DNA of 64,000 nucleotides from Escherichia phage slur14. Positions 31,072-42,753 of the stretch are shown one piece after another. The notes under the pieces are model-generated. The model was not told where the DNA came from. It worked only from the letters and a program-made list of their open reading frames with translations, and made no database searches. The position numbers were made by a program, and so were the translations under genes. The DNA is taken from sequence record NC_028448.1. One strand, given 5' to 3'. Each line of letters opens with the position of its first letter. Position 1 is the first letter of the stretch.

Positions 31072-31078
31072 TTTGTGT

Positions 31079-31132
31079 TCCTCATGTTATGTCAGTAAGA
31101 CTACTATAACACAACACGAGGGACTTGTAAAC
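31079..31132 (-). promoter_or_regulatory. Conserved early promoter cassette, copy 1 (TTTACA-17-TATAGT plus leader and SD)
   Basis: 54 nt identical to 45355-45408; minus strand gtttacaagtccctcgtgttgtgttatagtagtcttactgacataacatgagga then ATG. Confidence 0.65.
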
Positions 31133-31492
31133 TACATTTTGAACTTTTTAGTACGCGGAATAGGCATGCGTCGATTTTATACTGTTTCATTGTTTGAAGA
31201 GCAGTATCAAAAACAGCATTAATGACACCAATTGGATTTCCACTCAAGTTTTTAAGCTTAACTAATGATAGTTTCTCATTAACACCTATCATTACGATAT
31301 GCATCATTTTGTCGCCTGGTTTAACGTTTTATCTGTATCACCGCCAGAGGTGTATGTACAAAATCTAAATCCAGGAAGCACGCTTTCTTCGCCGGCTTGA
31401 ATAGCAAAAATTTGTGGTATTTTATGCTTAGGATTTAAGTTAACAACCGGCGCCGAAGCGCCGTCAAATAATTATGTAATAAGTTCCATGAT
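31104..31492 (-). pseudogene. Decayed duplicate of the alt 5' region (first ~125 codons): premature TAA at codon 6 and a frameshift; residual 67-codon ORF 31104-31307
   Basis: About 70% DNA identity to alt 33230-33586 by eye; translates MELIT*...PQIF...GFRFCTYTSGGDT...MMHIV...MKQYKIDAC versus Alt N-terminus. Confidence 0.6.
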
Positions 31493-36853: not shown

Positions 36854-37046
36854 TGCTTATAATTTCAACATCAGCCCAATGACCATAGCAAGGAAGACGA
36901 AATTCAACTGGCCAGTTAGGGTCCTTTTCTAATATAATAGACTCAACTCGTGGTTCTTCACGTTCATCAGTATATGGATTTTTATCTGTTACTTTATATG
37001 TGACCTTAATGTACTGAATTCCAAAAATCTTATTAATTATATTCAT
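36840..37046 (-). CDS. Hypothetical small protein
   Basis: 68 aa ORF in operon-like array. Confidence 0.45.
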   Translation of the reverse strand: MNIINKIFGIQYIKVTYKVTDKNPYTDEREEPRVESIILEKDPNWPVEFRLPCYGHWADVEIISIENV

Positions 37047-37240
37047 ACTAATTCCTTTAATCCGTAGATAGGAGATAATTCATCACCCATACGAAGGTCT
37101 TCATTTCCATCTACCCAGGAAACAATATAAGCCTCTTTTATTTGAATACCACTCCATTTAAATGGAGGTAGAACCTTAGAAATTAATCCAGGTATACCAA
37201 CTCCCTTTAATTCAACAGTTTGACCTAAAAAGAATTTCAT
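37043..37240 (-). CDS. Hypothetical small protein
   Basis: 65 aa ORF, overlapping junctions. Confidence 0.45.
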   Translation of the reverse strand: MKFFLGQTVELKGVGIPGLISKVLPPFKWSGIQIKEAYIVSWVDGNEDLRMGDELSPIYGLKELV

Positions 37241-38334: not shown

Positions 38335-38359
38335 TTTATTCTCCTTTGTTTGTGTAAGA

Positions 38360-38392
38360 TAATACTATCACAAAGGAACCATACTGTAAACA
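38360..38392 (-). promoter_or_regulatory. Candidate early promoter (TTTACA-17-TAGTAT)
   Basis: Minus strand ttgtttacagtatggttcctttgtgatagtattatc ~25 nt upstream of ORF 38002-38334. Confidence 0.4.
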
Positions 38393-38407
38393 ACTTTATG
38401 CAATCTT

Positions 38408-38440
38408 TGGAAAATAAAAAAGGACTCCCGAAGGAGTCCT
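38408..38440 (-). terminator. Rho-independent terminator downstream of the small basic-protein gene
   Basis: Minus strand AGGACTCC-TTCG-GGAGTCCT hairpin followed by ttttttattttcc. Confidence 0.7.
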
Positions 38441-38444
38441 CAAC

Positions 38445-38621
38445 TTATGCTTTCTGCTTACCAAAACGAGAAGCATCATCTCGAAGAACCGCACGTGCTC
38501 GGCGCATGATCTTCTCAACAGTTTGATTGATACGAGAGTTCGACCCACGCTTGTAGCCAGCGCGTTTAGAATCACCAACTTTCTTTTCAACTGCTTTCTT
38601 TGCTTTAGCTTGTTTTGCCAT
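38445..38621 (-). CDS. Small highly basic protein (Lys/Arg-rich)
   Basis: 58 aa from ATG at 38621 (MAKQAKAKKAVEKKV...); track ORF extends to 38663 from a weaker upstream start. Confidence 0.45.
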   Translation of the reverse strand: MAKQAKAKKAVEKKVGDSKRAGYKRGSNSRINQTVEKIMRRARAVLRDDASRFGKQKA

Positions 38622-39019
38622 TATAAATTCTCTTTTAAATGAAAATGCAGGACTTATTGGCATTGCCTGCGCAAGCCCTCAAGGGGAACATAGGTTTTTG
38701 GATATTTAACGACCAGGATAACCATAAACCCGTCATCATACCTTATAGCTCTTATCTGTTGCACACCGTTAGCTTAAAGGTTCCGGGTTCGATTTCTCGA
38801 GGATAAGATATATACTGATGGATATATAGGCCTTGAGGCGTACTCCCGATTGGCCATCACCTCGGGGTAGCATGCACTTGCCGCTATAAGAATAACATTC
38901 AAGAGGTACACCGTAAAACTGCCGGGGTCTTAAAACTATAATGATTCGCAAATCATTAATCAGACAGTTCGACGGCTCCTCGATTTTAGCTCACACTAAG
39001 GCAGTGAATCTCCAGTAAA

Positions 39020-39268
39020 TTACTTCAGTGTTACCACAAAGTGACGAACTGCTTTTCGTGCAGCAGAAGCCAAAGGCTTAGCATATTTAAGTTCATCTTT
39101 TTCCTGAAGCTCAGCAGCTAATGCAGTTTGAGCAGGATTCAGATGTTTGAAATAACGCAGGATTTCAAGAGCTTCGGCTTCAACATCAATAGATGCGCCA
39201 TAGTTTTCGTGACCATTATTCCATGCGTTTCGTTGCAGTTCAAGAGCGTGTTGTAATTGTTTAATCAT
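39020..39268 (-). CDS. rIII: rIII lysis-inhibition accessory protein
   Basis: 82 aa ORF, same length as T4 rIII; lies upstream of gene 31. Confidence 0.75.
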   Translation of the reverse strand: MIKQLQHALELQRNAWNNGHENYGASIDVEAEALEILRYFKHLNPAQTALAAELQEKDELKYAKPLASAARKAVRHFVVTLK

Positions 39269-39415
39269 TTAAAAATTCTCGTTAGAGATTAAAACTCGGT
39301 AGTCACGTTCTTCTGAATTTCATCTTCTTTCGACAGATCTCTCAGTTGTAGACTACCACATAGAATTGTTCGGTTAACTTATTATTCCGACACCCAATTC
39401 ATATTATTATTTATA

Positions 39416-39751
39416 TCACTTATAAAGACACGGAATAGCTTTATAGTGACAGGTAACAAATTTTTGTTTAATTTCTTTTGGCTGCTTAAGACCCAGAGCT
39501 ACAAAAGGATGCGGAACATTTCGAATTTGACCAACTGGGAGAGAAGTCAAATCACCAACTTCGCAGAAACCTTCAGGAACATCAGGACCGACAGAGTGAA
39601 TTACACACAGTTCAGGAACTTCACCTTGAACACGTTTACCGATAATAAGTCCTGATTCTGTAACTTCTTCATCACCGGCTTGTGCAGGTTCAGAAACTAA
39701 AATAACATATTCACCGACAGCACGAATTGGTAGCTGTTGTACTTCAGACAT
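39416..39751 (-). CDS. 31: Co-chaperonin gp31 (GroES functional analogue)
   Basis: 111 aa ORF; matches T4 gp31 in length and position. Confidence 0.85.
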
Positions 39752-42391: not shown

Positions 42392-42564
42392 TCAATAACA
42401 TCCAAAGCGTTATCAAAAGTTGAACCATCTACTTTGTCTTCTGTTTCATAATCAAGAACATCTAGGCCTACTCTTCCGTCAACAATAGGCCATAAACAAA
42501 ATAGATATTTCTTTTCTTTTTCAATTTTATCACAAAGACGATAAATCTTTTCTATATTATTCAT
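42364..42564 (-). CDS. Hypothetical small protein
   Basis: 66 aa ORF. Confidence 0.4.
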   Translation of the reverse strand: MNNIEKIYRLCDKIEKEKKYLFCLWPIVDGRVGLDVLDYETEDKVDGSTFDNALDVIDWLEENYVR

Positions 42565-42753
42565 AAGTTTTCCATGGTAAAGGCAGTTTAGTTTTCTTTA
42601 CTGTTAGTTCAATATCAGGATTCTTTTCTCTTAATTTAAGGCATTCCTCCCAAGCTCTGATTTCACTAGTGAATACACAAAATTGCCCATTACTAGTACC
42701 AACTAAACCACTATTTACAATAACAATAGACCAAGTTTCATGATGCCACGCCA

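Follow-up and report, generated by a model that had tools for sequence, protein, structure and literature searches.

What accounts for a stretch without a convincing open reading frame (ORF) in a phage genome otherwise tightly packed with genes? The question is raised by positions 38622–39019 of the window analysed here, 64 kb of Escherichia phage slur14 (NC_028448.1), where a first-pass annotation made from the letters alone had marked a GC-rich, ORF-poor island between rIII and the small basic-protein gene 30.9, and had offered three readings of it: a small RNA with structure, what is left of a decayed mobile element or tRNA, or a region of regulation. For the 143 nt at the centre of the island, the structured RNA has strong support from covariation, both in its seven helices and in a kissing loop. 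That 38745–38887, read on the minus strand, is a real structured RNA element with the fold described below is in our judgement very nearly certain. On the genome comparisons, the element is also a discrete and dispensable module, carried by some T4-type phages and missing from the same place in others.

We aligned 22 distinct copies of the element (alignment A4, MAFFT-based), defined seven helices on the minus strand, and built from A4 a covariance model, R1; realignment to R1 gave a second alignment, A5, which leans towards the model, A4 being the more conservative of the two. Later counts of frames, loops and invariant positions cover 25 distinct members. Against the 64-kb window, R1 found a sole match, spanning 38742–38890 (174.6 bits, E about 6e-38). 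In A4, 97.3% of cells pair and 27 of the 44 pairs have changed on both sides; none of these measures was reached in any of 500 shuffles, and sliding the 3′ partners by 1–3 columns left pairing at 29–42%. The corresponding figures for A5 were 98.7% of cells, 29 of 44 pairs with double changes, and 24–42% pairing in the slid controls. The minus-strand centroid fold is the same as the comparative model. Because G-U pairs are frequent, and the GNRA loop is found, on the minus strand only, the minus-strand transcript is by these signs the strand that folds. The case above chance lies in comparison and not in features visible in a single sequence.

The seven helices form a P1-closed architecture in which P1, P2, P4 and P5 meet at a four-way junction with no unpaired linker bases (Table 1). 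P1 can be extended to 9 bp in slur14 (38741–38891). The Tegunavirus-type copy (105 bits) carries a compensatory change to GGU/ACC in P2, otherwise invariant, as well as compensatory changes in P7, which also covaries in Slopek- and Roskilde-type copies. Across the family P3 measures 11–14 bp, with changes on both sides at 7 of 13 pairs in A4 and 9 of 13 in A5; one of its pairs is read as G-C 19 times and as G-U 10 times. P5, which encloses P6 and P7, has changed on both sides at 5 of 7 pairs and reads UCCGUG/CACGGA in Slopekvirus.

The terminal loops of P3 and P4 provide the long-range contact of the fold. L3 is the exact Watson-Crick complement of L4 at 6 of 6 positions in all 25 members, and it is so in five versions: CGAUGG with CCAUCG in Klebsiella, Enterobacter and Citrobacter phage copies and in PS49; UGAUGG with CCAUCA in the slur14 window and its relatives; CUAUGG with CCAUAG in the Muldoon type; CAAUGA with UCAUUG in the Cronus, L022 and Teguna type; and UGCAUU with AAUGCA in Slopekvirus. 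Double changes occur at all six pairs, with 100% of cells paired, which indicates a 6-bp kissing interaction between L3 and L4. P3 and a stack of P2 plus P4 (10 bp) are similar in length, so P3 probably folds back along P2–P4 in such a way that L3 meets L4 within one molecule, giving a compact globular RNA; the sharp turn would, we infer, be made at the invariant internal loop that separates P2 from P3. A Shine-Dalgarno-like string in P3/L3, GAGGUGAU, was rejected as a functional signal, being unconserved (GAGGCGAU, UAGGCUAU).

The invariant nucleotides of the family are confined to the junctions and one loop. J2/3 reads AAGNGCAU in every member, GCUAA, GUGNGCAAC and CCNGANCC are invariant in all lineages, and L7 follows the family pattern GAMCC...GCUAA. 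Any further pseudoknots among J2/3, L7 and J7/5 would lie beyond the reach of covariation, the positions being invariant. In one IMG/VR copy (UViG_2974737508, L022, 526–683), an extra hairpin, GCC-UAU-GGC, stands in the middle of L7 in place of UUUAA; judged by this copy, the centre of L7 is a tolerated expansion site between invariant GAMCC and GCUAA flanks.

Table 1. Features of the structured RNA and its locus in the slur14 window.
Feature	Position	Strand	Description
Structured RNA element, P1 5′ strand to P1 3′ strand	38745–38887	minus	143 nt; defined by covariance model and covariation
Presence/absence cassette with the RNA inside	38740–38894	minus	'GA' at the same place in T4-type genomes
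P1 5′ strand, AUAGC	38883–38887	minus	Pairs with GCUAU (38745–38749); closes the junction; 5/5 pairs change on both sides
P2 5′ strand, GGC	38880–38882	minus	Pairs with GCC (38829–38831); 3 bp; invariant in 24 members
J2/3, AAGUGCAU	38872–38879	minus	Asymmetric internal loop with J3/2; invariant core
P3 arm and L3	38838–38871	minus	12 bp; C, A and AA bulged; 6-nt apical loop UGAUGG (38854–38859)
J3/2, CUCAAG	38832–38837	minus	Family pattern YUNANG
P4 hairpin and L4	38809–38828	minus	7 bp; 6-nt loop CCAUCA (38816–38821)
P5 5′ strand, UCUUAUC	38802–38808	minus	Pairs with GAUAAGA (38750–38756); 3′ strand abuts the P1 3′ strand
P6 hairpin, UCGA-GAAA-UCGA	38789–38800	minus	4/4 pairs covary; GNRA (GAAA or GUAA) in most lineages
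P7, ACCCG/CGG-U-GU with bulged U; L7, GAACCUUUAAGCUAA (15 nt); J7/5, GCAACA	38757–38788	minus	Most conserved part
gp31	39416–39751	minus	Upstream of rIII
rIII	39020–39268	minus	From ORF and annotation of homologues; directly upstream of the flagged interval
30.9	38445–38621	minus	58 aa, very basic; PHROG 1427, function unknown
Intrinsic terminator, strong	38420–38441	minus	Closes the transcription unit after 30.9

Covariation analysis and comparison with the rIII–30.9 interval of T4, both suggested at first pass, gave a conserved fold and, on the other side, a T4 without the element. In alignments with T4, Kha5h and IMG/VR Tequatrovirus loci, the 155 bases at 38740–38894 are absent from T4 and Kha5h. 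A core of about 135–145 nt recurs in Klebsiella phages of other genera with unalignable sequence on either side, and in Klebsiella, Serratia and Erwinia phages alike the element aligns and its flanks do not. The spacer between rIII and 30.9 is 120–245 nt in phages without the element, and the Tequatrovirus sequence downstream of it is the same in RNA-less phages such as T4. The window holds one copy in its 64 kb, and no target-site duplication was seen at the T4-versus-window junction. Two IMG/VR Tequatrovirus loci (L170 and L174) carry an unrelated insert of about 50 nt (…CACGCGTCAGAAAAAGGTTATCTGTCTAAGTCGTG…) at the point equivalent to 38740/38894, which suggests that the cassette site is a recombination hot spot with alternative inserts.

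A sensitive blastn search recovered the element from 406 phage records of about 11 genera at 80–100% identity (77–96% in the overall summary of these records), among phages of Escherichia, Shigella, Yersinia, Salmonella, Citrobacter, Klebsiella, Enterobacter, Raoultella, Serratia and Erwinia, together with one Karamvirus labelled Aeromonas. The surrounding region was matched by 985 records. About 40% of related genomes carry the element; it was present in 13 and absent from 12 of 25 IMG/VR loci anchored on gp30.9, and present in 6 of 16 anchored on rIII. Between genera the element is 77–87% identical, as against 59–73% for gp31 and rIII, with only 30.9 in Marfavirus equalling it; by this measure the element is more conserved than the protein genes that surround it, and its compact fold is under purifying selection. 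Pattern scans of IMG/VR and of JGI/ENA metagenomes recovered only T4-like enterobacterial phages, as did the locus sets anchored on 30.9 and on rIII, three further loci in these scans (L028, L152 and L166) being chance matches. By blastn, 5,426 E. coli genomes gave no match, and plasmids gave two chance 30-nt matches only. In 596 Gb of bacterial genomes the 16-mer pattern used was too short and returned random matches, 100 of 120 loci being scored as noise by R1, with a best value of 17.8 bits.

A different context is found in Slopekvirus K41P2 and a second Slopek-type lineage (UvsY 82% identical), whose copies score 115–124 bits and keep all helices. There the element stands not between rIII and 30.9 but behind the last ORF of the uvsY operon, with the helicase gene uvsW converging on it from the other side, and no conserved ORF lies downstream of it; apart from the terminator, the sequence after the element is unconserved between the two lineages. 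Because Slopekviruses carry the element at uvsY/uvsW, it is unlikely to be a dedicated leader for 30.9, and so is the regulatory region envisaged at first pass in that form, the more so as the downstream sequence is shared with RNA-less T4. In Klebsiella phage K41P2 (L009, 1250–1480), the RNA copy is separated from a bidirectional terminator shared with uvsW by another 200 nt or so of non-coding sequence, in which several hairpins occur; this stretch is poorly conserved in the second Slopek-type lineage apart from the terminator.

In slur14 the minus-strand order is gp31, rIII, the flagged interval, 30.9 and an intrinsic terminator. The slur14 window belongs to a Tequatrovirus, and 38400–39300 is 100% identical to Escherichia phage slur03 and 98–99% identical to many T4-like phages of E. 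coli, Shigella and Yersinia. Our scan found no terminator-like site between rIII and 30.9, and no sigma-70-like promoter of the element's own passed it; candidate −10, late and MotA motifs upstream of the element, noted by eye, are unconserved between lineages. In T4, promoters of the early, middle and late classes all serve rIII (PMC9409239), and rIII is likely to be the source of transcription through the element. Because the element shares a strand with rIII and 30.9, with no terminator-like site between them and no conserved promoter or terminator of its own, it would be made within the rIII-to-30.9 message, and presumably within the uvsY operon message in Slopekviruses.

The protein gp30.9 gave no Pfam and no PDB match. 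Compared with Marfavirus it is 86% identical in amino acids (aa) and 87% in nucleotides, gp31 and RIII being only 66–70% identical in aa. It could be an RNA-binding protein; T4 has 30.9 without the RNA. One IMG/VR scan for 30.9 returned no Slopekvirus contig.

Two small features were noted downstream of the insertion point. A block directly adjoining that point (UAUGAUGACGGGUUUAUGGUUAUCCUGGUCGUUAAAUAUCC, 38690–38744, minus strand) is conserved in several genera with or without the RNA. It starts a 34-aa ORF (38635–38739), which is probably non-coding because 1-nt indels among relatives shift its frame, bring it back and then shift it once more. Beyond it, the hairpin CCCC-UUGA-GGG with CUUG (38672–38686, minus strand) occurs a single time in the 64-kb window; it is retained in RNA-less T4, L186 and L190, and one lineage has a compensatory CCUC/GAGG. 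In phages of the Jiaoda, Marfa, Muldoon and Slopek types, a version of this hairpin, GUACCC-N4-5-GGGGCUUG, follows the RNA at a distance of a few to about 10 nt, whereas in Karamvirus PS49 it directly precedes the RNA; it is found even at the separate Slopekvirus locus. Candidate roles are a signal for processing or stability, a protein-binding site, or part of a promoter resembling a MotA box.

The composition of the interval agrees in outline with the first-pass annotation. Its GC enrichment is real and modest, at 42.5% for 38622–39019 as against 36.2% on average over the window, which places it in the top 5% for stretches of 398 nt, and is concentrated on 38745–38887 (47.6%, top 1.4% of 143-nt windows). 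All strings quoted at first pass are present in the sequence: ggttccgggttcgatttctcgagg at 38779–38802, cctcggggtagcatgcacttgccgc at 38860–38884 and ctgccggggtc at 38919–38929. The T-loop-like GGTTCGATT, however, is a plus-strand string, antisense to the RNA, whose bases take part in the covariation of helices P6 and P7 (TCGA/TCGA, CCGA/TCGG, CTGA/TCAG). Of the complementary 8-mers proposed as a long-range pair, ccttgagg is at 38831–38838 as reported and cctcaagg at 38677–38684 instead of 38669; the pairing would join the local hairpin at 38672–38686, which T4 also has, to J3/2, and is coincidental. The hairpin ATGATT-CGCA-AATCAT (38941–38956) exists as described but falls outside the element, in the Tequatrovirus-specific 3′ region of rIII.

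The paucity of ORFs was likewise borne out. Only chance ORFs of 34–60 aa overlap the interval, none of them with a match among PHROG families, and 38335–39019, which includes the 58-aa gene 30.9, is the window's longest stretch uncovered by ORFs of at least 80 aa. Other stretches of 360–420 nt without such an ORF on either strand lie at 31072–31492, 36854–37239 and 42392–42753. No open frame crosses the element: all six frames contain stops in 25 of 25 distinct members, and lineages differ within the element by indels of 1–9 nt. A small protein-coding gene, the finding that the first-pass annotation had named as speaking against a structured RNA, was looked for in these 25 members and rejected, with neither a conserved open frame nor a PHROG match. 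In GenBank records, MK327939 and PV402692 among them, two to four short 'hypothetical protein' coding sequences are annotated over the RNA; these are almost certainly gene-caller artefacts.

The element matched no known RNA family. ARAGORN found no tRNA or tmRNA gene in the whole window, and Rfam 15 at gathering thresholds gave no match in the interval; at E<=10 with lax filters, nothing was found in the element, searched both within 1 kb and as the 161-nt element alone, and the Slopekvirus copy returned noise only. Weak matches to Atu_C8 and Phe_leader at 38406–38489 correspond to the 30.9 terminator. We rejected a tRNA remnant, given the empty ARAGORN result, the lack of any tRNA match in Rfam and a 'T-loop' that is antisense and unconserved; we also rejected paralogy with T4 rnaC/rnaD, as R1 run unfiltered on the T4 tRNA/rnaC/rnaD region reached at best 7.2 bits. 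A likeness to the SAM-I core (UCUUAUC...CCCGGNAACC...GGUG...AGAUAAGA) was rejected as well, the SAM-I model giving no match and P5 covarying completely in Slopekvirus. A full-text literature search that included the element's own 13–16-mers returned no description of it. The element may be among the 10,006 unnamed viral candidate structured RNAs catalogued by Fremin et al. 2023 (PMC10690425).

How might such an RNA act? Our best explanation, comprising both the structured RNA and a mechanism, we put at a probability of roughly 0.45. Its mechanistic part, which we advance tentatively, is that the element could be an autonomous RNA module that binds a specific partner and serves as an accessory factor in host takeover or counter-defence, not as a switch for one gene. 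Such an RNA would act independently of any particular neighbour gene, would be released or persist as a stable, processed species shielded by P1 and the flanking hairpins, and might use its invariant junction nucleotides (J2/3, J3/2, L7 and J7/5) to bind a host or phage protein or a small molecule. Autonomy is suggested because the messages that carry the element are of two unrelated kinds, Slopek-type phages have no conserved gene after it, and the 30.9 leader is common to RNA-less phages. Several points weigh against this explanation. The folding-energy z-score of the sense strand is an unremarkable −0.84 (antisense, +0.28). Most of the covariation comes from about 12 independent lineages, and the shuffles ignore phylogeny; a phylogenetic artefact is nevertheless disfavoured by the control with slid partners and by how many distinct pair types occur. 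With no 30.9 recognisable in Slopekviruses in one scan, and a T4 30.9 that does without the RNA, a partnership with 30.9 is not one to assert with confidence. Finally, invariant junctions in a closed fold would be just as much at home in a cis-acting mRNA element or in a ribozyme that cleaves itself. Of the rivals to a partner-binding module, the ribozyme is the main one: a new self-cleaving class would cut the rIII–30.9 or uvsY-operon transcript in an invariant junction and so uncouple the fates of the cistrons. Occurrence as an autonomous module in two unrelated intercistronic contexts, patchiness among close relatives, the P1-closed fold with its invariant nucleotides in junctions and internal loops, and a four-way junction with a long-range loop contact that recalls the hairpin and twister-sister ribozymes all fit this idea. 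We nonetheless consider it distinctly unlikely, as no known family matches at E<=10 and no catalytic signature is recognisable, 143 nt exceeds most small self-cleavers, and a single copy at a syntenic site is unlike the scattered, multi-copy hammerhead and twister ribozymes of phages. A cis-acting mRNA element without a ligand, acting as a barrier to 3′ exonucleases or RNase E, an insulator of cistrons or a modifier of the polymerase or ribosome, seems unlikely as well. The element does always stand on the sense strand, 8–130 nt past the rIII stop or 17 nt past the last ORF of the uvsY operon, near an operon end and ahead of a terminator, with small stable hairpins flanking it in most lineages. 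Simple hairpins would suffice for protection, however, whereas long invariant single strands and a 6-bp tertiary contact suggest that something is recognised specifically; the same genes are expressed in T4 and in many relatives that do not have the element, and in Slopekviruses an anti-terminator placed before a bidirectional terminator that faces uvsW would be counter-productive.

The remaining alternatives are less probable still. A riboswitch-type aptamer controlling 30.9 through a metabolite or ion would account for the multi-helix junction, kissing loop, closing P1 and invariant core, and for the element's place upstream of 30.9, itself unusually conserved, in every non-Slopek lineage. 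We regard it as improbable: the 30.9 start codon is 100–230 nt away, a constant position in the 5′ leader of the controlled gene, with an expression platform beside it, was not found (the Tequatrovirus leader is identical in phages without the element, and no terminator or anti-terminator alternative adjoins P1), no conserved gene follows in Slopek-type phages, and no riboswitch family matches. The same loops could instead pair between molecules, 'hand in hand', so that the RNA would assemble into dimers, rings or filaments as a scaffold. Each 6-nt loop is closed directly by its stem and is fully complementary to the other, the two covary as matched alleles, and P2–P3 stacked straight on P4 would set them at opposite ends of a rod, too far apart to touch in a single molecule. 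phi29 pRNA multimerises through kissing loops. GOLLD and ROOL are reported to do so as well (bioRxiv 10.1101/2024.12.08.627333). For our element we think this quite improbable, given that the length of P3 matches P2 plus P4 as expected for intramolecular fold-back, that the invariant P2/P3 internal loop is well placed for a turn, and that the T4-type packaging motor needs no RNA, T4 itself being without the element. A locus with no RNA-level function at all, whether a young insert of selfish or mobile DNA or what remains of a decayed tRNA or mobile element, is very improbable indeed and, from the covariation, appears largely refuted. Presence/absence polymorphism among near-identical genomes is what favours the mobile-element reading of the first pass, to which one may add the other insert of about 50 nt at the same point in some relatives and the high identity between genera. 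Yet divergent copies of the Slopek and Teguna types (105–124 bits) keep every helix by compensatory changes with strand-specific G-U pairs; a miniature inverted-repeat transposable element in particular was rejected, the copy being single, without target duplication, and its P1 terminal repeat varying yet still pairing; and there is no tRNA signal and nothing similar in E. coli genomes or plasmids.

A bolder proposition is that this element would be the founding member of a class of functional RNA not seen before, in one of the best-studied groups of phages. It would then be a ribozyme of a new self-cleaving type, or else an aptamer-like RNA working in trans to capture some signalling molecule or host factor. 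We hold this proposition to be rather doubtful. In the aptamer-like case the RNA would be a counter-defence or takeover factor, and its kissing-loop 'alleles' would be kept by selection on the compact fold or on self-assembly.

Among known systems, the lysine L-box, purine and cobalamin riboswitch aptamers come close in architecture: like the element, they are P1-closed multi-helix junctions of 100–200 nt in which an arm is folded back into a kissing helix of about 6 bp and the invariant nucleotides lie in the junctions. Unlike them, the element matches none of their covariance models, has no evident expression platform, no single downstream gene and no ligand-related gene context, and occurs only in lytic T4-like phages. 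phi29 pRNA is likewise a phage RNA of about 120–170 nt, with mutually complementary loops that covary between related phages, and two such loops are what we find here. It differs from the element, however, in having a three-way junction, in being essential, in binding the portal and packaging ATPase and in pairing its loops between molecules; the element has a four-way junction, is dispensable, and shows no similarity to pRNA in sequence or to its Rfam model, nor any sign of an essential packaging role. The hairpin and twister-sister ribozymes share with it a four-way junction joining conserved loops and a life as autonomous intercistronic modules in mobile or viral genomes, but their Rfam models give no match and their signature core sequences are absent. 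T4 rnaC and rnaD (species 1 and 2) are also dispensable T4-type phage RNAs, of 119–139 nt and unknown function; they differ in lying in the tRNA cluster and ending in a tRNA-like T-arm and acceptor, and T4 has both of them and not the element. GOLLD, ROOL and the candidate structured RNAs are phage-borne, of unknown function, and recognised by covariation, with tertiary contacts that include kissing loops; GOLLD and ROOL, at 400–800 nt and with Rfam models of their own, have another architecture than the 143-nt element. The closest relations are divided, with the lysine and purine kissing-loop aptamers nearest in architecture, phi29 pRNA in loop genetics and the four-way-junction ribozymes in junction layout. 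We rate the element as a new RNA class by family and fold, the orphan structured phage RNA being familiar as a general kind.

T4-type phages are the reference system of phage molecular biology, and this RNA is unannotated in all records that we inspected. The fold equals riboswitch aptamers and ribozymes in complexity, the contact between its loops is a textbook case of covariation, and the element, dispensable as it is, has been kept more strictly than the proteins encoded beside it. Natural, isogenic-like pairs of phages with and without the RNA already exist in T4 and the slur03-type phages, the former without and the latter with the 155-nt cassette. A non-coding RNA feature is due, in place of spurious ORFs, in several hundred phages that are candidates for therapy, among them phages of E. 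coli, Klebsiella, Enterobacter, Citrobacter, Serratia and Yersinia. Should the RNA prove to bind a metabolite or a host factor, or to be self-cleaving, then phage takeover, counter-defence or mRNA processing would gain an RNA player.

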